From: Naegleria gruberi
Taxonomy: Eukaryota
DNA length: 64,000 nt
Assembly (NCBI GenBank): GCA_000004985.1
Contig: GG738900.1
Direction: 5' to 3' (one strand)
Position numbers and translations under genes: made by a program. Shown piece by piece: positions 5,343 through 48,353 of the stretch (within the stretch, counting starts at the first letter, position 1; the number at the start of each line of letters is the position of its first letter). Under the pieces are notes generated by a model. The model was not told the DNA's origin. It searched no databases and saw only the letters and a program-made list of their open reading frames with translations.

Positions 5343-5465
5343 TAATTTATAATAATAAAGAATTTAATTGAAACTCTCTAGGTATCCCAACAACATCCAA
5401 ACAAAACACAAACAGATATATACCACTAACAGTCCATTAAGGATAAATATTCATAATGAATGTAT

Positions 5466-5537
5466 TCCCGTGTAGTCCAATGGCTAGGATACCTGGCTTT
5501 CACCCAGGAGGTCCGGGTTCAATTCCCGGCATGGGAG
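5466..5537 (+). tRNA. tRNA-Glu(UUC): tRNA-Glu (anticodon UUC), copy A
   Basis: Cloverleaf: acceptor TCCCGTG/CATGGGA (one G-U), D arm GTCC-AATGGCTA-GGAT, anticodon arm CCTGG-CTTTCAC-CCAGG, T arm CCGGG-TTCAATT-CCCGG, discriminator G. A T5 run lies 6 nt downstream. Confidence 0.93.
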
Positions 5538-5580
5538 AATACTTTTTAATGTTGATAAAACCAATTTTATTTGGTATTGA

Positions 5581-6621
5581 TTAAGGAATTTGGAGAATAA
5601 TTTTTCCAACAGTTCTATTGGATTCACTCATTTTTTGAGCTTGTGAGGCTTGATCCAAACTTAGAATATGAATTGGAATGTCTTTCCATAAACCACTTTC
5701 ACTCAACCACTTTAAGATAACTGCCAATTGATCACCATCCCTTTCAGCATACAAATTTTTGGCTCTTTCACTTCCAAAAACCTTTCCAGAAATTCCTTGA
5801 GGTGTGTGAACAATTGTAACAAATTGTGATTCTTCATCTTGTTTGAGCAATTCAATGGAATAGTATTCTTGATAGGATCCAACAAAATCCAACACTATAT
5901 CAAAGGTACCTTTCAAAGATTCCAATTCATGAGTGAGATATTCCTTTCCCTTAGTGTAATCTAACACTTGATCAGCTCCCAACTTTCTAACAAAGTCTGC
6001 ATTCTTTGCTGATGAAATGGTAACAATCTTTTCAGCATTGAAATAATTCTTGGCAAGTAAAATACCTGACATTCCAACACCACCACTTCCACCAATGATT
6101 AGAACTTGTTTTCCTCTCAAGGAGTCTTTTTGTCCACTCTTACTTGATGGATGTCTGAGGAAACATTGAAAAGCAGTCAAGAAAGTTACTGGACACGAGG
6201 CAGCAACTTGATGACTAATTGATTCTGGATTAAGAGCTGCTTGAGATTCAGAGCAGACAACATATTGACTGTATGTTCCTCTGATGTGTGTCATGTTACA
6301 ACCACAAACTGAATCACCAATCTTGAATTTGGTTACTTTGGAACCAGTGGCAACTACAATTCCACTAACTATTCGAAGGTAAGAATGAAAAATATTAAAC
6401 TTACAATCAACTCCAAGAATCGTTGGATATGAATTAATATAAAACCCATATTGTCTTACTTTACAATCTAATGGATTAACTCCAGCATATTGATTTCTAA
6501 CAAGAATGTCATCTTCATTCAATTGTGGTAAATCAAATTTATGGTCAATTACAATGTCATCAGCACTGACATTGGCAGATTTAATAATTGCAGCAGTTTG
6601 AAAGGTTGGAAGACTTGACAT
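5581..6621 (-). CDS. zinc-type alcohol dehydrogenase-like / quinone oxidoreductase (MDR superfamily), 2 exons
   Basis: Exons are 6405-6621 and 5581-6368. A 36-nt in-frame, stop-free intron (minus strand GTAAGT...ATAG, 6369-6404) is read through by the track ORF. Removing it gives ILGVDFSGIVVATGSKV, the typical MDR G.D.(S/A)G.V...G block. The Rossmann motif is VLIIGGSGGVGMSGILLAK. Confidence 0.8.
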   Translation of the reverse strand: MSSLPTFQTAAIIKSANVSADDIVIDHKFDLPQLNEDDILVRNQYAGVNPLDCKVRQYGFYINSYPTILGVDCKFNIFHSYLRIVSGIVVATGSKVTKFKIGDSVCGCNMTHIRGTYSQYVVCSESQAALNPESISHQVAASCPVTFLTAFQCFLRHPSSKSGQKDSLRGKQVLIIGGSGGVGMSGILLAKNYFNAEKIVTISSAKNADFVRKLGADQVLDYTKGKEYLTHELESLKGTFDIVLDFVGSYQEYYSIELLKQDEESQFVTIVHTPQGISGKVFGSERAKNLYAERDGDQLAVILKWLSESGLWKDIPIHILSLDQASQAQKMSESNRTVGKIILQIP

Positions 6622-8698: not shown

Positions 8699-8933
8699 TT
8701 ACCCATTATGTGAAACCTTACTAATTTGAATTTGTCTTTATTTTGGATAAAGTATTGAAACTAGGAAGCTCAGCAAACTTCAACACTCTTCTTTTTATAA
8801 TTTTTAAAATGTATGCAATAATGTAGCAAGTACATGATATTTATGAAATTATAATTCCAATTTTCATTATTATTAGTAATTATTCCCATTTCTTTATTTG
8901 TCCATTAAGGATAAATTTTCAAAATAAATGTAT

Positions 8934-9005
8934 TCCCGTGTAGTCCAATGGCTAGGATACCTGGCTTTCACCCAGGAGGTCCGGGTTCAATTCCCGGCAT
9001 GGGAG
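8934..9005 (+). tRNA. tRNA-Glu(UUC): tRNA-Glu (anticodon UUC), copy B
   Basis: The 72 nt are identical to copy A as far as I can align by eye, and a T6 run lies downstream. Track ORF 8948-9157 (MARIPGFHPGGPGSIPGMGEY) is just this tRNA translated. Confidence 0.93.
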
Positions 9006-9091
9006 AATACTTTTTTAATTATGGACTTTTAATATTGTTAAAAATTAATTTTATGTTACCACATGAGGTATTGAATAATTTAGAATTTGCA

Positions 9092-9301
9092 TTAAGGAAT
9101 GTGGAGAATGATCTTTCCAACAGTTCTATTGGATTCACTCATTTTTTGAGCTTGTGAGGCTTGATCCAAACTTAGAATGTGAATTGGGATGTCTTTCCAT
9201 AAACCACTTTCACTCAACCACTTTAAGATAATTGCCAATTGATCACCATCCCTTTCAGCATACAAATTTTTGGCTCTTTCACTTCCAAACAATTTCAACA
9301 A
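9092..9301 (-). pseudogene. orphan 3' fragment (last ~66 codons) of the quinone oxidoreductase gene
   Basis: KLFGSERAKNLYAERDGDQLAIILKWLSESGLWKDIPIHILSLDQASQAQKMSESNRTVGKIILHIP differs at only about 3 residues from the C-terminus of the 5581-6621 gene. Homology stops abruptly near 9290, and no upstream exons or ATG are present. Confidence 0.8.
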
Positions 9302-9365
9302 AAATCTATGAGCCTTTTCTTGTCACATTAATAAAAATCTGCCATGTTGTTCAATTAACCACAAT

Positions 9366-10103: not shown

Positions 10104-10220
10104 AATAAAGTTGAATTTTGTAATGATTGCACTGTCGTGGGCAACATGATCTAATAAACAATCTTGATATACGAATCTTGTGTTCAATGTATGATTGTTT
10201 AAAAGTTATTAAGGTAAAAA

Positions 10221-10338
10221 GACTACAGCACCACAGGTTCCCAAGTTGTCTCCAACCTCAGTACTGATGTGGCTCGACGATGCTTACCTTCTCAAATCGG
10301 ACGGGATGAGATGCATTCATCGTGATATGGCCGTAGCC
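10221..10338 (-). rRNA. 5S: 5S ribosomal RNA, copy 1
   Basis: The reverse complement reads GGCTACGGCCATATCACGATGAATGCATCTCATCCCGTCCGATTTGAGAAGGTAAGCATCGTCGAGCCACATCAGTACTGAGGTTGGAGACAACTTGGGAACCTGTGGTGCTGTAGTC followed by TTTTT. It has 5S hallmark blocks (GGCCATA, CCCGTCCGAT, AGTACT, GGGAA) and a helix I pairing of GGCTACGG with CTGTAGTC. The ends are uncertain by a few nt (8 nt upstream are also shared with copy 2). Confidence 0.9.
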
Positions 10339-15060: not shown

Positions 15061-18000
15061 ATGAATCACAAAGGTTTTGCATTGCTTCTTGTGTTAACAT
15101 GTCTGTTGTTTATTACCATTCATCCAATAATGACTAGTGAACAAATTATTCGAAACCTTGCCGGTCAAGGAATATGTGATGGTCATTTATCAACAAATGC
15201 ACCAGTCAATCCCAGTGATTGTGCCTTTTTGGATGAAGAAATGTTAATTGCAGATGCCACTAATCATAGAATTCGTAAAGTTTTCACAAATGGAACAATT
15301 GTAACCATAGCTGGAAATGGATTTGCTGGTTACAATGGAGATGGTTTAGATGCAACAAGTGCTCAATTGAACAATCCAGTTGGCATTTATGTTGATACCA
15401 ATAGTAGAGAAGTTTACATTGCTGATTCTAATAATCATCGAATTCGTAAAATATTACAGAATGGAAAAATTACAACAATTGCTGGAACAGGAATTGCTGG
15501 CTACAATGGAGATGACAAAAGTGCAGACAGTGCCCAATTGAACACCCCAAGTGGAATTGTTATTGATCCAAATAATGGAGAAATTTTCATTTCAGATTCT
15601 AAAAATCACAGAATTCGTAAAATTTTACAAAATGGTAAAATTACAACAATTGCTGGAACTGGAGAAGCTGGTTACAATGGAGATGGAATTGAGGCAAAGT
15701 TTGCAAAATTGTATCTACCAAACGGAATTGATTTGTATGAGAAAGAGTTGTTTATTGCTGATCAAAATAATCATAGAATTCGTAAAGTTTCGCTTGATAC
15801 TGGACTAATTTCAACTATTGCTGGAAATGGAAATTCAGGTTACAATGGAGATAACATTCTGGCAACAAACTGTAAATTGAGTTTACCTGCAGGAGTTAGA
15901 TACGATTCGAAAAGAAGAGAAGTTTACATTGCTGATTCCAACAACCAAAGAATTCGTAAAATATTAGAAAGTGGAATAATTGTAACAATTGCTGGAACAG
16001 GAGAAGCTGGATTTGATAATATTCTCAATGCTACCCAATCAAAGGTTAATCATCCTAATAGTGTTACTTTGAACGAATTAGGGGAAGTTTTCATTTCAGA
16101 TTCACAAAATTATCGAGTACGAAAGATTACAACAGAAAGTGGAATAATTACAACAATTGTAGGAAATGGATTTGAAAAGTATTGCACAGATTTAGCTAGT
16201 AACACACCATTGTTTTATCCTCGTGGTATAATTTCGAATGAAAATGGAGAATTTTTCTATGCCGATTCTAGCAACCATTGTATTCGAAAAATTCTGACAA
16301 ATGGTACAATTCTTACAATTGCTGGAACAGGTACTAAGGGTTACAATGGAGATGGAATTGAAGCAACAAGTGCTCAATTAAATACTCCTCACGATGTTGC
16401 ATTAAACTTGGCAACTGGCGAGATTTACATTGCAGATACGGAAAATAATAGAATAAGAAAAATTTTGACAAATGGTACAATTACAACAATTGCAGGAACT
16501 GGAGATTATGGATACAATGGAGATGGAATCATGGCTGTAGATGCATGGTTGAATGAACCGAGTGGTGTTGAAATTGATTCCACTAGCGGTGAAGTTTTCT
16601 TTTCTGATACTGAAAATTTCAGAATTCGAAGAGTTTCGAATAGTGGAATAATTACAACAATTGCAGGAACTGGAAAATCAAAATTTAATGGAGATGGTAT
16701 GGCAACAGACACGAATCTTGCTACTCCAACTGAAATTCAATACGTTCCAAGTACTACTGAAATTTATTTTGCTGATTCTGGAAATAATAGAATTAGAAAA
16801 TTTACTATAAATGGAATGATGACAACTATTGCTGGAACAAGCACAAGTGGATATAATGGTGATAATATGCCTGCAACACGTGCTTGGTTGAATTTTCCAG
16901 TTGGTGTAACATACGATCCAAAAACCAATCAAGTTTATATTGCCGATTTATCTAATCACAGAATTAGAAAAATTCTGACAAATGGTACAATTACAACCAT
17001 TGCTGGAACAGGAAAAGGAGGTTATAATGGTAATAACTTGACAGCCTTATCCACTCAAGTGAATGGACCTCATGGAATGATACTACAACCGAATGGTGAT
17101 GTAATCTTTTCAGATAGCACCAATAATGTCATTAGAATTATCAGATCTGATCAAATTTATTGTAATGGAACATTGTCAAGTGATTTGAATGTTTGTAATG
17201 GTCGTGGTTGGTGCATGGAGAGTGGAAAATGCTCTTGTCAAGACGGATGGATTGGTGATTATTGTTCAGAGCCAACATGTGAAAATGATTGTTATGGACA
17301 TGGAAGATGTGTTTCGAATAATACATGTGAATGTGAATATGGTTGGGATGGAAACTCTCACTGTTCTCAATTTTCATGTGGTGGATTGAATAATTGTAAC
17401 TCGAATGGTTTATGTGTTTCGAATAATACTTGCAGTTGCCAATCAGGATGGGCTGGAACTGATTGTTCTCAATTTACTTGTTCTGGCGCTAGCAATTGTT
17501 CAGATCATGGTTCCTGCATTTCGAATAATACTTGTCATTGCAATTCTGGTTGGAAAGGAAATGCCCAATGTTCCCAATTTACTTGTGAACTCACAAATGA
17601 TTGTTCGAATCATGGCTTGTGTGTTTCGAATAATACTTGTCAATGTAGTTCAGGTTGGAATTTCATTAATTGTTCCATCAAAGAATGTCTCATTTCAATT
17701 GTTTCAGGTTCAAGAGAATTGATATGTGGAAATGATAATTCTTCTGGTCAACTGAAAACATTTAGCAGAATAACGACTCCAGTAATTGAAACAACAAGTT
17801 TCGAATTGAATGAAAATCAACATGTAAATGTTGATATTGGATCAAGAATAATGAATTTGGATCTATCTCAAGACAAGTATTTCATAACCTCTTCATGGAC
17901 CAATTCGAATAATTTATTCTTTACCAATGTTTCCAATTTACTAATTCAAAACTCAGGTTCATCACTTATTCAAGCAGAACTTTCAACAAAAATCAAGTAT

Positions 18001-21309: not shown

Positions 21310-21476
21310 CCTAGAAAATAATAAAATAAAGAAGTTCAGCAGAAACATCATATTGATAGATATCCAACAGGTGGTCTTACATCAGTATTAGCTGTTGATG
21401 AAAACAAAATGGGTTGGATTAACATTTAATTTGGCAGTTGACATTATTTCAATTAAGTTTTCTATTGGTTGAAAAT

Positions 21477-21693
21477 GACGGGAAGCCTGCCAGGAATATG
21501 ACGACAATCCCGCTACAGTCTTTGACTGTATGAACAGTGAAGGCAACGAAGACAGAATCTTGTTGGTTCAGGTTTTGTTTGAAGAAATTGTTAAAGTTGA
21601 TCAACCTCATATTTATTGAACATTTGTCATGTTGAAATGCATGATGCAAATTTTGGTTTCTCATATTCTGATCAATTCTAAATTGAAACTTCA
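21477..21693. repeat. dispersed ~220-bp repeat, copy 1 (70-nt near-invariant core 21477-21546)
   Basis: It aligns with 44032-44260. The first 70 nt (gacgggaagcctgccaggaatatgacgacaatcccgctacagtctttgactgtatgaacagtgaaggcaa) differ at 1 position, and the rest is much more diverged with indels. The core contains the perfect hairpin ACAGTC-TTT-GACTGT and a CGGGA...TCCCG pairing. Confidence 0.85.
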
Positions 21694-21716
21694 TTATTTA
21701 CAATTTACTGAATTAT

Positions 21717-22004
21717 TTACAAGTTTTTAGATTTGGTAATTTTCTTAGTTGTGGTAGTAGATTGTTTAGCTCTCTTTTCAATTGAATTTTTAGAAGATCT
21801 TTTCACTGAAATTTGTTTACCATTTAAATTTGCATGATGATAATCAATATTATTACGATGTCTAGTTCCACTTATAATATTTGAAGTATCAATATCAAAT
21901 AATGGTAATCTTTTAGATAAATCAATTGGTTTAGATCTTGTCCATTCTGTTTTTGTTGGAATTCTATCTTCGGAAGAATGTGATGAAGTATTTCTAGCTG
22001 GCAT
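21717..22004 (-). CDS. small basic protein with CHZ-type motif (Chz1/HIRIP3-like histone H2A.Z-H2B binding motif)
   Basis: 95-aa ORF. FDIDTSNIISGTRHRNNIDYHHANL matches the yeast Chz1 core EIDTSNIITSGRRTRGKVIDYKKTA (recalled from memory). Confidence 0.55.
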   Translation of the reverse strand: MPARNTSSHSSEDRIPTKTEWTRSKPIDLSKRLPLFDIDTSNIISGTRHRNNIDYHHANLNGKQISVKRSSKNSIEKRAKQSTTTTKKITKSKNL

Positions 22005-22227: not shown

Positions 22228-22443
22228 ATGGTCTCAACAAGAAGAAATATGTATAATTCCTCCAATAATACTTCACAATTTAATTCCGAAATTTCTCTGG
22301 ATAATATTATTGGTGGAACAAGAAGAAGAAATTTAATTGATTACAAAACATTGAATTCTATTGGAAGTGAAACAAGCAAAACTTCCAAATCTCAATCACA
22401 TAACACTTTAGAAATGAGAAACAAACAATTCAAAATGTGGTAA
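22228..22443 (+). CDS. small protein, paralogue of 21717-22004 with the same CHZ-type motif
   Basis: 71-aa ORF containing SLDNIIGGTRRRNLIDYKTLNS. It is divergently oriented, 223 bp from its paralogue. Confidence 0.5.
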   Translation: MVSTRRNMYNSSNNTSQFNSEISLDNIIGGTRRRNLIDYKTLNSIGSETSKTSKSQSHNTLEMRNKQFKMW

Positions 22444-23780: not shown

Positions 23781-23856
23781 TTTTTTAAATGGCAGTACTC
23801 TATGAATCAACATTGATTTACCTAATAAAAAACCTTTATTTTTGAATTGTCAAAAA

Positions 23857-23974
23857 GACTACAGCACCACAGGTTCCCAAGTTGTCTCCAACCTCAGTAC
23901 TGATGTGGCTCGACGATGCTTAACTTCTCAAATCGGACGGGATGAGGTGCATTCATCGTGATATGGCCGTAGCC
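23857..23974 (-). rRNA. 5S: 5S ribosomal RNA, copy 2
   Basis: The 118 nt differ from copy 1 at 2 positions (plus strand gcttaActtc vs gcttaCcttc; gatgagGtgc vs gatgagAtgc). A T5 terminator follows on the minus strand. Confidence 0.9.
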
Positions 23975-41134: not shown

Positions 41135-41746
41135 ATGTGCAATTTAAGTAATTATTTGTGGAGAAGTGATGATGATAAGCAAGTTTCAATTATAGAAAGA
41201 ACTCCTATGAAAAGTTCTAAAGTTAATGAGTCATTTATTATTGATTGCAGCCCGCCAACAACAGTTCTTCTTAACAAACCAAGTACCACTACCATAATTC
41301 CAACCAGTGACGAAACTTTGGTAAATAGATCTCCATCAACCAAAAGAAAAGTAGATGCAATTAATGTGAAGGAATTATCAAAGAAAGCTGTTAAAGCTAT
41401 CAAGACAGATAATGAACAAAACGATTATACTATGTCAGAAACTTCATTACTTTTACAAGAATTAACAGATATTCTTTCAGATAGAGAAGAAAGAGATGCT
41501 TTAAAAAGAAAAGTTGAGCTAGAAGAAGGTTTTTATGAGTATTGTATGCAATTTTATCAAAAGATTATTACAGAAAATAAGAAAAAGATGGAATTGTTAG
41601 AAAATCAATTCGGTGAAATAGAGGCATTATCTATTGAAGTATCTTCCTATATCACTAAAAGACGAGAGAAACTAGAAATACAAGATAAAATAGAACACGC
41701 TGCTATCAAAGAAGAATTGAAAAAGCTTTTTGCAGAAGAAAAATAA
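41135..41746 (+). CDS. orphan protein (203 aa) with C-terminal coiled coil
   Basis: ATG 41135 to TAA. The C-terminal half has a heptad-like charged pattern (REERDALKRKVELEEGFYEY...KKKMELLENQFGEIEAL...KLEIQDKIEHAAIKEELKKLFAEEK). It is preceded by a start-less ORF in another frame (40953-41147). Confidence 0.5.
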   Translation: MCNLSNYLWRSDDDKQVSIIERTPMKSSKVNESFIIDCSPPTTVLLNKPSTTTIIPTSDETLVNRSPSTKRKVDAINVKELSKKAVKAIKTDNEQNDYTMSETSLLLQELTDILSDREERDALKRKVELEEGFYEYCMQFYQKIITENKKKMELLENQFGEIEALSIEVSSYITKRREKLEIQDKIEHAAIKEELKKLFAEEK

Positions 41747-41760
41747 ACTATTTTCATGAC

Positions 41761-41816
41761 TTTACATTTATTTACATTTATTTACGTTTATTTACATTTA
41801 TTTACGTTTATTTATA
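41761..41816. repeat. 10-bp tandem repeat TTTAC(A/G)TTTA x5 plus a partial unit
   Basis: tttacattta tttacattta tttacgttta tttacattta tttacgttta tttata. Degenerate copies occur again at about 41845-41900. Confidence 0.9.
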
Positions 41817-42035
41817 TCAAATAATTACAAATAGTAATGTCTTTTTAAGTTTATTTACGTTTATTGAAATATTAACGTTTATTTATATATATTACTATTT
41901 GTTGAATAAATTAACAGTATTTATTATTAATAAAACCTAGTTTAATGTTTAATCATAATGAAGCAAACAATTTGTATTAAATAATAATCATTTGATACAT
42001 AATAATACATAATCTTCCGGCATGGAATAATAGGT

Positions 42036-42136: not shown

Positions 42137-42916
42137 ATGTCAAACACCACAGAATCAGACAAACTTCACAATGATGAAGCAGTGTGCGTCTCGTCATCCG
42201 ATGAAGAAGAATTTATCAGCAAGGATAAGCAAAAAGGTCACAAGGGAGTATTTATTGAAATCGGAGAACGTATGAAAAGATATGAAGCCAATCAAGGATT
42301 ATTCTTGGATGAAACCAAGCCGTATATGGCCAGATTGGATGGTCATAAATTCTCAACATTTGCTCGTCCATTTAGGTATGTAATGATATGAATTGATTGT
42401 ATTAAATTAATTCTTGATATTCAGAAAGCCATATGATAACTTGTTGCATGCAGTCATGGTTCAAACAGCTGCTGATCTGTGGAACAATTTAATGATGNNN
42501 NNNNNNNNNNNNNNNNNNNNNNNNNNNNNNNNNNNNNNNNNNNNNNNATTTGGGCAGCATTCTATTCTACCAAGGAAATGCATGGATTGAAAGCTCGTCA
42601 AGTTGTTGAGAAATTGAAAGAGGATAAGAATGTTGATTGGAATGATTATCCAATGGGTTATCGTTACGGAACTTTTATTAAAAAGTCAAAATACGAAAAG
42701 AATGTCAAGAATCCAAAAACAGGTGAAGAATTGGTGTGTATGAGAACTAAATCAGAAGCATTTTCATTCAAATTGGAAGATTTCGATTCAAAATATATTG
42801 AATTGTTTAATCTCAAGACATGGAATGAAGTTTTTGAAAAGGGAATTTTGAATAGAGATGATTTAATTCTTGAGCCATTGTTTAGTGATTTGTTGGCTTC
42901 AGATAACAAAGAATAA
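42137..42916 (+). CDS. THG1: tRNA-His guanylyltransferase (Thg1)-like protein, 2 exons, interrupted by an assembly gap
   Basis: Exon 1 is 42137-42375, the intron is 42376-42424 (GTATGT..TCAG), and exon 2 is 42425-42916. IGERMKRYE...YMARLDGHKFSTFARPFRKPYDNLLHAVMVQTAADL parallels human THG1L [23 protein letters not shown]. The N gap at 42498-42547 removes the catalytic middle. Confidence 0.7.
42498..42547. other. assembly gap (50 N) inside the Thg1-like gene
   Basis: Run of n characters. It produces the X run in track ORF 42479-42916. Confidence 0.99.
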
Positions 42917-43909: not shown

Positions 43910-44031
43910 AGTTACAAATATTTACATTTGACTTGATTTCTTTTCACACTTTGTAGTTGTGTGAAATGAAGAATATAACGATTGGTTAATCAAGTAGTGT
44001 GATATTTGTAACATTTCAATTGTTAATTTTG

Positions 44032-44260
44032 GACGGGAAGCCTGCCAGGAATATGGCGACAATCCCGCTACAGTCTTTGACTGTATGAACAGTGAAGGCA
44101 AGAGTTCTGGACGAATCTTGTTGTGTTTAAATAACAGGTTGTTGAGGAAATTCAATAGGTTGATCAACCTTGTATTTATTGAACATTGATTCGCTGAATT
44201 GCTTGATGCAAATTTTGGTTTCATATTTTCTGATCAAATCTAAACTAAATTGAAACTTCA
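44032..44260. repeat. dispersed ~220-bp repeat, copy 2 (core 44032-44101)
   Basis: See copy 1 (21477-21693). It has the same orientation. The minus-strand ORFs over the two copies fall in different frames across the conserved core. Confidence 0.85.
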
Positions 44261-44757
44261 GCTTATTGGATTTCATCAGCAAATTATTACAAGAAATCAA
44301 TTTTTTCACAAGATCTTTAAATATTAAAAAAATATCTCATCATTTATAATAACATTCGAATGGTTGAAATTTTTTTTACCATTTCTCATTACCTTATTTG
44401 TAAATTAATGAAATTTGTGCAATGATGCATATGAAAATGATGATTAAAATTAAATATTATCCAATTGGAATAGCTAGTGGTTTTCCAATAATTCCAAAAT
44501 CAATAAGTGAAATCTCAACTATTTAAATCTACAAGGTGTTTCTCTAAATTCATTAGATAATTTCATCTCAACGATTTATTTAATTTCAATAGAGAAACAC
44601 CATATCTTGTTTATTTAGCCCATTGCCAAACATCACATTTCAAACCATCAAAATCTCTCATTAAAAAAAATTGGAGACATTTGCCTGCCATCCATCATCA
44701 TTTTGATCACACAAAAACAAGAAGAAGAAGAATAAAATCGTGCATCAAAACATCAAA

Positions 44758-47700
44758 ATGGCACCTCCATCATCATCCACCAATACAATCCATGAAAAAT
44801 TTGATTTTTATTCCCTCGTTTCACCACAAGGACAAATCAAAACTATTTGTTCAGTAATTGATGATTATGATTTTATATTTGTTGGTTTGGGGGATGGTCG
44901 TGTAGTTATCTATCGAATGAAAATTGATAATTTCTCAGCCATTGAAGCAGAGAAATGTGTTTCCATCAATATTGACAAGGCACCGATTGAAGATATTCAA
45001 GTTGACTCTAAAAACAAGTTACTTTTTGTATTGAATGAACAACATGATTGATATTTTGGTTATGATCCGAAACATCCAACAGGAATTTCTTGAGAGAAAG
45101 GCAGAAATTTTGGGTAAACAAATTTCATGTTTTGCTGTGGATAAGAGATGTGAAAATCAGAGATTGGTTTTGAGTTATAAAAGTGGAAAGTTAAAAGGAA
45201 AGGCATCACTGTTTTCATATAAGGAATTGTTGGAAGATAGTGTTCAAGAGTTGACTGAAATTAAAACAGTTGATATGGAAGATTCAAATCAATTTACGAC
45301 AACTCATGAAATGTTATTTGTTGATTCTTACTTTGTTTGTTTACTTTCAAAAGGTGCAAAATCAAAAGAAGTCATGTATTATAAGAGATTTAGTTTGAAT
45401 ATTTCACAAACTACGAGAAATTTCATTTCCTGTCAATCAATTGTTACAAAAGAAAGTGATATGGATGAAATTCGAGGAACAAAGGGTGTTTATATTAAGA
45501 ATAGTATGATTCATTTAGAAGGAAAGGTAGCTCTCTTTAGATGTGGATTGAAATTGTGGAGACCTTGCTATTTGGATGGTGAAAAGTATTATGTGAGAAA
45601 TGCCTCCTCAAATATTGTTTCAAGTGTTGCAGGAAATGCTAACAATACTACTGATTCTTCTTCATCACTTTCCAGTAATATTCAAAGTTCAAATTCTGAA
45701 GAACAATCAGAAATTGAAGAAGTCAACTATGAAAGAACCAACACTTTACAATCCATGAAGGAAGAATTTAAATATGCCTATGTTAACACAAATGGTGCTG
45801 AACCTTTGAGTGTTTGTTTGTGTTTCCCATATGTTGCTTGTTTGATGAGTGACAGTCTCGATATTTACAATTTATATTGGAGAGAAAGTACAACTACCAA
45901 GTCAACTATGCAAGCAAAGAAAGTTTATTCATTATTGAACAATAAGGATGGTACCACTATATTTGCAGATGAACATCGTTTCTATGTGGTTACTGAAAAT
46001 TCAAATGCCATTCGTTACTTGTCTCCTCCAAATAGTGATATTCAATTAAAGACATTGAGAGAAGAGTTGCTCTCACCACAAGCTCATCACTTGTTCAAAA
46101 TGAGACAAGACAAAAATAGTGAAGATTTCAGAAAGGAATTGATGGAATTCCAATTTGCAAATGGTAAAGCGAACTTGGAAAGAGGTAGGCCGAAGGAAGC
46201 TTTCAGATTCTTCTTAGAATCAATGAAGCAATCAAAGTATTTATCCATTGAAGATAGAAAGGATATTCGTGAGATTTTGAGATATTTCATGTATTATAGC
46301 GGTTCTTCTCATTCTCAATTTAGTTTGATTTCACCAAGTTTCTTCCCGTCTTCAATTTCAAGTGAACCAATTCGTGAAAAATTGACTACAAACTTTAAAC
46401 AAGGGAAAATCAAAGCTGGTATCGATCAGAACTTTATCACTCAAGATATGGCTATGAACTTTACAGAGCACTTTATCAACTTGCTCATTCACAAGACTTT
46501 CATGTACTTGATGGAATTCCTTGAAGTGGTTCAATCAAATCCAAAATATAGACCTGAAACTTTGGATCAACAAGCTGCAGTTGAATATGCCTTGTTAGCT
46601 CTCTACACATTACCTCATCCAAACATGGCTTCAAAGGAATTTGATGAAAACAATAGAAGATCCCTTGCCTACTATCATCATTCTTGCTATGAGAACATTG
46701 AAAAGATTGTAAAGAGAAAGCACGAACCTGGTTTTGAAAAGTATACTGAACAATTGTTCAAAGTCTTGACAGATACTGGTTGTTGGAGACACGCTGCCTT
46801 GTTAGCTCATAATCTTGGGCAAAGTACTCAACAAGTTATGGGTATTTTCAAGAGTAACATTAGTCGTGACATTTACTATGAACGTTACGATGGTGTGGAT
46901 GATGTTGTTGATATTTTAAGTCAGATGGATGGTAATACATTATTGCAAAATCCATCCATTAGAGAATTCATTTCATGGATCATTTCACTCAATCCAAGCA
47001 AGAGTGTCAAGATTTTCACCGCCCCAAGAGCTAATCCACCAATCCCAGATTTGGTATTGGAATTCTTGAATCCATTCCCTCTCAACATGACAGTTCAATA
47101 TTTGCATCACATAATCTATGAAACAAAGGGTCAAGGTATTACAGATAGAGATTTGAATAGATATCATACAGAATATGCAATAAGTTTGATTGATTATGTA
47201 ACCTTGATTTATCCTGTCAATCTCGATAAGAGACTTGCCCCTCCAGCAGGTACTGAACAGGGAGATCTCGGTAAATTTAGAGGATACTTGTTGAAACACA
47301 TCAAGGAAAGTAGCAGATACAATAAGGAAATTGTCGACAAGAAACTTCAAACATCCAATTTGAATGAGGAAAAGATTTCACTCTTCCATGTTATGGGAAA
47401 ACACGAGGAGGCATTAACTGTCCTTGTAAAAACTGATTTGAAGAGAGCTGAGGAGTATTGTGATACTGTCTTTGAGGAAGAACAAAAATCTACAGTTTTA
47501 CTTTCAAAGAGTGGAAATCAAGCAAGTAATTACAATCCATATTTAATCAGATTGATTGAAATTACAACCAATCCAACACTTTTTGATGAATATGATGAAG
47601 AGAGTGCTCTCCGTAGAATGATGAGTGTTCTCAGTTTACTTCAAAGAAGAGCTTCGGATATTAACATTATTGAAGTATTGTCCGTACTTCCAGAACATTC

Positions 47701-48040
47701 TGAATTGAGGCAATTATCAACCTTCTTAACTCAGGCCATTCAATTTACTCATCACAATAATAGAACTACTTTAATTAAGAATGAATTGGCAAGAAATGCC
47801 TCAATGCAAGTTAAGGCACGTCATGTCAAAGCTACAACCAGATCAATAACTGTTACTTCAACTACATCATGTCCAGTTTGTGAACAACCTATTGGTAATG
47901 CTGTCTTTGCAATCTTCCCTGACCAATCAGTTGTCCATTATCGTTGTTTGATTAGCAACGAAGATGAAAAGAAGGAAAAGAATAGGAATGTCCATCCAAA
48001 GAATGGTATTGATTTTAAGAAATTCCCAGTTGACTTTTAA
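44758..48040 (+). CDS. VPS39: Vps39/Vam6/TGFBRAP1-family tethering protein (CNH domain, Vps39 repeats, C-terminal zinc finger)
   Basis: ATG is at 44758 (the track start 44740 is GTG). Two overlapping ORFs are joined either by a GTATTG..ACAG intron at 45028-45082 (in phase) or by a 1-nt frame correction. The C-terminus CPVCEQPIGNAVFAIFPDQSVVHYRC matches C.VC...IG.S.F..YPNG.VVH..C of Vps39/TRAP1. YLHHIIYE and HEEAL.VLV-type helical repeat segments are also present. Confidence 0.8.
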
Positions 48041-48146
48041 ATCTTTACCCGTAACAAATAAATCAATTAAACAATTCGTTCACTCTTAATATCATTAATT
48101 TTTAGCCATTTCCAAATCCTTTTAGTCGGTTGGCAAAGAAAACAAA

Positions 48147-48235
48147 AGGCGACTGAGGGAATTGAACCCTCGACCCTCAGTTATCTCAGCATTACTGCCT
48201 ACAAGACTGATGCACTGCCACTGTGCTAAGCCGCC
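48147..48235 (-). tRNA. tRNA-Thr(UGU): tRNA-Thr (anticodon UGU) with a 17-nt intron
   Basis: The minus strand reads GGCGGCT TA GCAC AGTGGCA GTGC A TCAGT CTTGTA[GGCAGTAATGCTGAGAT]A ACTGA GGGTC GAGGG TTCAATT CCCTC AGTCGCC T. The intron sits at the canonical 37/38 position, and TTTTGTTTT follows downstream. Confidence 0.8.
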
Positions 48236-48353
48236 TTACATGCATCAAAAAAATTATAAAAACCTGTGCTAAAGCAACACATGTCAAACTTTCTTCAAAA
48301 ATTTTCCACTTGAAGTTCAATTAGACATTAGACTTGAAAAAAAAGGCTTTACA

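Follow-up and report, generated by a model that had tools for sequence, protein, structure and literature searches.

Within a 64,000-nucleotide (nt) stretch of the Naegleria gruberi genome (GenBank assembly GCA_000004985.1, contig GG738900.1; the whole stretch is called the window below), a dispersed element is present in two copies, copy 1 at 21477-21693 and copy 2 at 44032-44260. We present evidence that both copies are, with high confidence, genes for a real structured non-coding RNA, members of a previously undescribed gene family of the Heterolobosea. Judged by the sequence comparisons given here, the RNA is about 220 nt long, is conserved at least across Naegleria and Willaertia and is most likely transcribed from the minus strand. 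Read in that direction it consists of some 150 variable nucleotides as the 5' domain and of a conserved 70-nt 3' domain (the core), which ends right after the second of two hairpins.

The first-pass annotation of the window had described a nearly invariant core next to some 150 diverged nucleotides, and this description holds. A repeat finder returns the core (21477-21546 against 44032-44101) as a direct repeat with 69 of 70 positions identical (99%; family D13), followed by two weaker collinear blocks (85% in D17 and 83% in D18). In the remainder, with its insertions and deletions, 108 of the 146 aligned positions are identical (74%, with 14 gap columns), against 98.6% in the core. According to BLAST and local alignment, the similarity between the copies is confined to 21477-21698 versus 44032-44267 (80% over 242 columns): the 7 bases beyond the core end have nothing in common, and the flanks past the other end of the element align only poorly. 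Since the flanks fail to align, the copies do not belong to a larger segmental duplication, a possibility which the first-pass annotation had raised against its own reading. From the divergence of about 26% elsewhere we estimate that some 18 of the 70 core positions should differ, whereas a single difference is observed (plus-strand G at 44056 in copy 2, A at 21501 in copy 1). By this comparison the 70-nt domain is under strong purifying selection.

A third copy of the core was found in Willaertia magna (L004, 6897-6972; BLAST E 1e-7, covariance model 95 bits). It differs from the Naegleria core at 21 of the 70 positions, with the helices retained. Both helices reported earlier, the hairpin ACAGTC-TTT-GACTGT and the CGGGA/TCCCG helix, are present as described, and the proposed check for covariation across copies comes out in their favour, as both core hairpins are kept in Willaertia through five pairs with compensatory, two-sided changes. 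In a model of 20 pairs over the three sequences, 59 of the 60 cells hold standard pairs; when the 3' partners are slid by 1-3 columns as a control, pairing amounts to only 28-47%. Hairpin A' comprises 13 pairs, with three two-sided compensatory changes between Naegleria and Willaertia (C-G to U-A in the outer helix, G-C to A-U and C-G to U-A in the inner stem) and three one-sided changes that preserve a wobble pair. Two of the 7 pairs of hairpin B' are compensatory, the stem ACAGUC/GACUGU of Naegleria being replaced by ACUCUC/GAGAGU in Willaertia. The first-pass annotation had offered three readings of the repeat (a small structured RNA gene, a SINE-like element, that is, a short interspersed nuclear element, or a conserved cis element), and it is the first of these that the compensatory changes in Willaertia support.

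While these stems drift, the bases of loops and junctions (the loops AAA and AUAUUCCU, the segments GUUCA and CUUCAC) do not vary among the three sequences, a pattern that fits loops acting as recognition surfaces. The Willaertia counterpart of the segment UUCACUGUUCA reads CUUCACUCACCGUUCA, with CUUCAC and GUUCA retained. In the Willaertia fold the 5' end pairs with the CUUCAC region just before the 3' domain, and this modelled pairing suggests an RNA of similar length in that genus (about 222 nt). The Naegleria 5' end can be paired with the CUUCAC region by eye, although the helix is absent from the Naegleria minimum-energy folds. A covariance model built from the three cores recovers them at 95-103 bits and finds nothing further in the window nor in 85 kb of four other Naegleria loci.

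Regarding the strand, the earlier description of the element on the plus strand stands for the element itself and probably not for its orientation: wobble pairs favour the minus strand, which would turn the core into a 3' domain. On the minus strand, G.U pairs fill seven cells that on the plus strand would hold A.C (the closing pair in each of the three sequences, a U.G in both Naegleria copies, a G.U in Willaertia and a U.G in copy 1), and the plus strand pairs in 52 of the 60 cells against 59 on the minus strand. The single base that differs between the copies gives C-G in copy 2 and U.G in copy 1 on the minus strand only. Fold energies relative to shuffled sequences show z-scores of -2.1, -3.3 and -2.9 for copy 1, copy 2 and Willaertia on the minus strand, compared with -0.5, -2.1 and -2.0 on the plus strand. 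Finally, beyond the element the copies resemble each other only in an A/T-rich box (CUUGUAA(A)UAAUU), situated 18-33 nt upstream in minus orientation, for which we infer a putative promoter role. It is because of the G.U cells, the fold z-scores and the presence of this box on the minus side only that we read the gene on the minus strand.

The opposite strand would accommodate an Sm-class small nuclear RNA (snRNA) or a spliced-leader (SL)-type RNA with the 70 nt as its 5' domain. Here AAAUUUUGG would be the Sm site, with GGUUUC...GAAACU as the 3' stem behind it, and a possible splice donor would be the GUAUGA that comes after the plus-strand hairpin and, as we take it, resembles the beginning of the SL-RNA intron in kinetoplastids. 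The Sm-like run does lie within 19 nt that both copies conserve (D17), transcription could start at the sharp boundary GACGGG, and the plus-strand folds of copy 2 and Willaertia are mildly better than shuffles. However, this reading converts seven cells of the covarying helices into A.C, including the one at the only base that differs between the copies, and the plus-strand upstream regions of the copies have no motif in common. Besides, no spliceosomal or SL family matches at E <= 10, the Willaertia Sm candidates (UAUUUGG and AAUAUUGUGG) are imperfect with respect to the rule RAU3-6GR, and we found no literature report of trans-splicing in Naegleria (an absence of report, not a test). An Sm or SL RNA is thus improbable; given the minus strand, the Sm-like run would be the complement of the AAACCA block discussed below.

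No known RNA family accounts for the element. The first-pass annotation could not match it to known snRNAs, the signal recognition particle (SRP) RNA, RNase P/MRP, tRNA or 5S ribosomal RNA (rRNA), in agreement with Rfam: at the gathering threshold the whole window yields only two 5S rRNA and three tRNA genes, and at E <= 10 the three copies yield only chance-level matches to C/D, microRNA and long non-coding RNA models. A comparison of the sequence with U1, U5, U6, U6atac, U12, RNase P/MRP, SRP, telomerase RNA, the thiamine pyrophosphate (TPP) riboswitch and the selenocysteine insertion sequence (SECIS) failed, and none of these was returned by Rfam. A snoRNA (small nucleolar RNA) of the box C/D class was rejected as well: the C/D model matches are weak (E 0.1-6) and fall on the plus strand in Naegleria and on the minus strand in Willaertia. 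A conserved C/D box pair (RUGAUGA/CUGA) was not found, as Willaertia alone has GUGAUGA at the 5' end and no D box was seen. In the literature we found no study of Naegleria small RNAs, nor a description of such an RNA.

A protein-coding gene can be rejected, since the copies differ by indels of 5, 8 and 1 nt, which break the reading frames. As reported in the first pass, the frame in which the core is read differs between the minus-strand open reading frames (ORFs) 21449-21694 and 43922-44224. In copy 2 and in Willaertia, the frame left open in copy 1 meets stops 8-10 codons ahead of the core and 3-5 codons past it. Substitutions in the core are distributed over the codon phases as 10:8:3 (p ~0.16 in our own chi-square test), with no excess at third positions. 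No Pfam family was matched, and a six-frame peptide query against 5.8 billion proteins gave no relatives. A full HMMER scan of 1.84 billion representative proteins returned one match only, to a low-complexity repeat protein, and this match is spurious.

The genomic neighbourhood links the Naegleria and Willaertia genes. The 1001-aa ORF at 45035-48040 (+) is Vps39, 100% identical to the N. gruberi protein; copy 2 sits 0.5 kb upstream of it, and in Willaertia, where the distance to Vps39 is about 3 kb, the copy is likewise upstream and oriented to the gene in the same way. This linkage spans 44032-48040 in N. gruberi and L004 6897-13768 in W. magna, and because of it we regard copy 2 and the Willaertia copy as probably orthologous, with copy 1 as a later duplicate. 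Among the Vps39 loci compared (N. lovaniensis, N. fowleri, an environmental Naegleria contig and W. magna), the core was found in W. magna only; in the other three an adh_short gene lies upstream of Vps39 instead, preceded by a TCP-1 gene in N. fowleri and N. lovaniensis. Scans with the core motif gave no match in the JGI metagenomes and two chance matches in the GTDB genomes, both within prokaryotic coding sequence. Exact matches to the overlapping ORFs, or to the CHZ-domain ORF beside copy 1, were sought in order to reach transcriptome contigs, and none turned up. No relative outside N. gruberi was found for the 821-aa neighbour of copy 1, which is therefore uninformative in the search for homologues.

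As stated in the first-pass annotation, copy 1 lies directly 3' of a CHZ-like gene: it begins 24 nt past the stop of the ORF at 21717-22004 (-), which contains a CHZ domain (Pfam PF09649, E 1e-6). This position, on the same strand, might suggest a cis-acting structured mRNA element, for instance a SECIS-like element or a signal for stability or localisation in a 3' untranslated region (UTR), and the Willaertia copy about 260 nt downstream of a minus-strand metallophosphatase gene would agree with it; on the plus strand, both Naegleria copies also lie 120-170 nt past ORF stops. Copy 2 contradicts it, as the 480 nt between this copy and the divergent Vps39 are full of stops and no minus-strand ORF lies upstream. 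In Willaertia there is no annotated plus-strand gene in the ~2.4 kb upstream, and the nearby ORFs are short (<60 aa). On these two grounds the element is not consistently one of a UTR. Moreover, the candidate host genes are mutually unrelated, and the plus-strand upstream ORFs end in TAG and TAA, which is not suggestive of a selenoprotein. Having three copies without a common host gene, a pure cis element is unlikely, and we give this explanation a low probability.

A second CHZ ORF is found at 22228-22443 (+), head to head with that at 21717-22004 (-) and 220 nt apart from it; its match is below the Pfam cut-off (21.5 against 23.3 bits).

One sharp boundary and a diverged remainder might also be expected of the terminus of a mobile element or SINE, and the Naegleria plus strand can be drawn with the P1/P2/P4-like nesting (GCCU/AGGC) of a hepatitis delta virus (HDV)-like ribozyme, such as may stand at the 5' end of a retroelement. 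A small protein-coding exon would find some support in the similar peptides that the open frame of copy 1 yields in Naegleria and Willaertia. We consider this whole group very improbable. The 64 kb hold just two copies, and the 85 kb from other Naegleria loci hold none; reading of the flanks revealed no target-site duplications, A-tails or A/B boxes, and the Vps39-linked copy stands in a linkage conserved across genera, so that the SINE-like element proposed in the first pass is not supported. An HDV-like ribozyme, a nested double pseudoknot (P1, P1.1, P2, P3, P4) that begins at its cleavage site, was rejected because the P2-like pairing is found only in Naegleria and is absent in Willaertia; where a short P3 is expected there is a long inner stem of 7 bp, fully paired on the minus strand only. 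Against an exon stand the frame-breaking indels, the flanking stops, the lack of a third-position excess and the lack of protein relatives.

The invariant single-stranded parts of the RNA resemble the antisense elements of the H/ACA snoRNA snR30/U17. On the minus strand, the apical loop of hairpin A' with its closing bases reads AUAUUCCUG and is invariant in both Naegleria copies and in Willaertia. The usual form of the m1 element of snR30/U17 is AUAUUCCUA, while AUAUUCCUG is listed for Tetrahymena and Candida glabrata (PMC7601244, Table 1). The conserved single-stranded m1 motif AUAUUCCUN is thus matched by AUAUUCCUG, though in a terminal loop. The other antisense element, m2, reads AAACCAU; its six bases AAACCA pair with rm2, and UAUUCC of m1 with rm1 (GGAAUA), in expansion segment 6 (ES6) of the 18S rRNA, the m2 pairing forming 6-bp helices (PMC2664660). 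All three copies contain AAACCA, with A (Naegleria) or C/A (Willaertia) as the seventh base. Outside the core, no block but that around AAACCA is conserved across the genera: both copies and Willaertia have a single exact 8-mer in common there, AAACCAAA, and a full-length MAFFT alignment places the Naegleria block GAAACCAAAAU opposite GAAAACCACAAU in Willaertia. Two candidate AAACCA sites exist in Willaertia, and which of them is the homologous one is ambiguous. The size of the element (217-229 nt) agrees with the 203-240 nt of most listed U17 RNAs (PMC7601244), and a variable 5' domain combined with a conserved 3' domain is found both in the description of U17 and in the element.

Based on these similarities we propose that the RNA may be a nucleolar, snoRNA-like chaperone that base-pairs with the 18S precursor rRNA and so docks on its ES6. 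GGAAUA would be the partner of the apical loop UAUUCC (within AUAUUCCUG) and UGGUUU that of the upstream AAACCA, the extended rm1 and rm2 sequences being those of yeast 18S. These contacts would be those which m1 and m2 of snR30/U17 make in 18S maturation. The antisense elements would be presented in linear antisense order (first the m2-like element, then m1) on a scaffold without H/ACA boxes. We put the probability of such snR30-like docking at roughly 0.3, the rRNA target and the nucleolar role being suggested by analogy. It is doubtful whether Heterolobosea possess in this RNA a radically remodelled functional counterpart of snR30/U17, with UAUUCC and AAACCA in linear antisense order and one of them in a hairpin loop; in that case the essential function of ES6 chaperone would have moved to, or been reinvented on, a non-H/ACA RNA.

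Several observations weigh against this proposal, the architecture in the first place. The m1 of the element lies in a terminal hairpin loop, whereas that of snR30 is on the 5' side of an internal loop, and the m2-like block lies 85-150 nt upstream of m1, whereas m2 of snR30 is downstream. In every described snR30/U17, m1 comes first and m2 precedes the ACA box by seven nucleotides; the ACA box is located 3 nt before the 3' end, and the 5' hairpin is followed by an H box (ANANNA) (PMC2664660). No ACA follows the last hairpin of the element, where the three loci read CAU, CCA and CUA, and no convincing H box was seen in it. An ACA 7 nt after AAACCA is not present in Naegleria and occurs once in Willaertia, at the second AAACCA site only. 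None of the three copies matches the SNORA73/snR30 model at E <= 10. A canonical snR30 3' hairpin running past the core was rejected too, as conservation between the copies does not extend to the sequence downstream, and a lower stem, m2 and ACA find no place. By its architecture, as read from these copies, the element is not a member of the snR30/U17 family.

The motifs themselves call for caution as well. ATATTCCT occurs 17 times in total on the two strands of the AT-rich window and AAACCA three times in 500 nt of Willaertia, and because both motifs are short and common, a chance origin of the m1 and m2 matches is a live option. Trypanosoma brucei, another member of the Discoba, has an snR30 with an invariant m2 and a compensated m1 (PMC2664660). 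Since this species has one, a canonical snR30 may be encoded elsewhere in the Naegleria genome. The covariation is derived from three sequences representing two lineages and falls short of statistical proof, and some of the inner-stem pairs were picked after the sequences had been seen. Transcription, strand and RNA ends are likewise deduced from the sequence. When metagenomes were scanned with a Naegleria 18S primer from the literature, two matches came up, both of them by chance and outside rRNA.

The same minus-strand RNA gene might have another job, as a lineage-specific scaffold or guide RNA of a different ribonucleoprotein (RNP), for example another snoRNA of pre-rRNA processing or the RNA of a nuclear RNP. 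The invariant loops UAUUCC, AAA and CUUCAC/GUUCA would then bind a protein or some other RNA target, and the likeness to m1 and m2 would be coincidental. The evidence on structure, conservation and strand applies equally to this explanation, and the failed tests of snR30 architecture, the lack of a matching Rfam family and the frequency of two such short motifs in an AT-rich genome speak for it. What it leaves unexplained is that both single-stranded elements which are invariant across the genera are the 18S docking motifs of one and the same RNA, and that size and layout also match U17. We regard another job as a serious contender, at somewhat under even odds.

Table 1. Features of the two Naegleria copies (positions in the window).
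Feature	Position	Strand	Remarks
Copy 1, RNA gene	21477-21693	-	217 nt, read 21693->21477; limits from similarity to copy 2; putative strand from G.U pairs
Copy 1, conserved 3' domain (70-nt core)	21477-21546	-	69/70 versus copy 2; homologous to Willaertia L004 6903-6972
Copy 1, hairpin A'	21478-21513	-	6-bp outer stem, small internal loop, 7-bp inner stem with 1-nt bulge
Copy 1, apical loop UAUUCC of hairpin A'	21493-21498	-	within AUAUUCCUG at 21491-21499
Copy 1, hairpin B' (UACAGUC-AAA-GACUGUA)	21514-21530	-	7 pairs; abuts hairpin A' directly
Copy 1, single-stranded segment UUCACUGUUCA	21531-21541	-	immediately 5' of hairpin B'; conserved
Copy 1, AAACCA	21654-21659	-	within conserved block AGAAACCAAAAUUUGCAUC (21643-21661)
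Copy 1, Sm-like AAAUUUUGG	21650-21658	+	plus-strand reading of the AAACCA region
Copy 1, upstream A/T-rich box CUUGUAAAUAAUU	21711-21723	-	18-30 nt before first conserved base; overlaps stop codon of the CHZ ORF
Copy 2, RNA gene	44032-44260	-	229 nt, read 44260->44032; divergent from Vps39 (44740-48040, +)
Copy 2, conserved 3' domain (core)	44032-44101	-	69/70 versus copy 1
Copy 2, hairpin A'	44033-44068	-	loop UAUUCC at 44048-44053
Copy 2, hairpin B'	44069-44085	-	
Copy 2, segment UUCACUGUUCA	44086-44096	-	
Copy 2, AAACCA	44216-44221	-	within block UGAAACCAAAAUUUGCAUC (44205-44223)
Copy 2, Sm-like AAAUUUUGG	44210-44218	+	plus-strand complement of the AAACCA region
Copy 2, upstream A/T-rich box CUUGUAAUAAUUU	44281-44293	-	21-33 nt before first conserved base

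Within the variable domain, a 12-nt palindrome (GGTTGATCAACC) is kept in both copies, approximately at 21589-21600 and 44152-44163; the minus-strand reading of copy 1 is GGTTGATCAACT. A second TTGATCA is located nearer to the 5' end of the RNA. The palindrome could serve for dimerisation or protein binding, or form a hairpin.

The window contains a number of other repeats and genes. The two 5S rRNA genes (10220-10338 and 23856-23974, both on the minus strand; Rfam 98 and 105 bits) lie within a 152-nt repeat that is 94% identical including flanks, and one of them is situated 2.2 kb from copy 1. An intron-containing tRNA-Thr(TGT) gene (48146-48236, -) lies immediately downstream of Vps39. A duplicated segment (5432-5801 and 8900-9312) carries tRNA-Glu(TTC) at 5465-5538 and 8933-9006 (+); the ~220 nt after the tRNA are 92% identical and read as minus-strand coding sequence, as if the 3' end of a gene had been duplicated together with the tRNA. 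This part (5580-5801 and 9091-9312) contains a AATTTTTGG run, which reads as coding and not as an Sm site, and the repeat is unrelated to the RNA element. At 15196-17661 about ten tandem repeats of 171 nt (57 codons), putatively NHL-like, are followed by four Cys-rich repeats of about 105 nt, putatively EGF-like, and the region looks like a large repeat protein gene. An interstitial minisatellite with the 10-nt unit TATTTACRTT (about 8-14 units) is found at 41739-41890, and at 42479-42916 an ORF is broken by bases given as unknown (translated as X), an assembly gap in the source record.

Overall, the element is a candidate new RNA family, with a structure supported by covariation across genera and without a match in Rfam. 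snR30/U17 is treated as universal and architecturally fixed from yeast to trypanosomes. If the proposed docking is true, an essential step of small-subunit assembly would be carried out by an RNA outside the H/ACA RNPs, and the element would provide a testable entry to ribosome biogenesis in Discoba. If the function is another one, the element would still be a conserved RNA with invariant loops. Homologues in the pathogen N. fowleri, if present, might have practical value; the little N. fowleri sequence that was searched yielded none.

Compared with other known systems, the element resembles the Sm snRNAs and SL RNAs in its similar size, in the AAAUUUUGG run followed by a stem on its plus strand and in being a small, dispersed, multi-copy gene, but it matches no U1, U2, U4, U5, U11, U12, U4atac or SL model. 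Another comparison is offered by TB11Cs2C1 and TB11Cs2C2 of T. brucei, two lineage-specific and abundant snoRNAs of pre-rRNA processing (PMC2978370). These are C/D-box RNAs of 76-92 nt, whereas the element is without a convincing C/D pair. The likeness is that, in both cases, small RNAs of one protist lineage are proposed to act through base-pairing with rRNA rather than by guiding its modification (PMC2978370).

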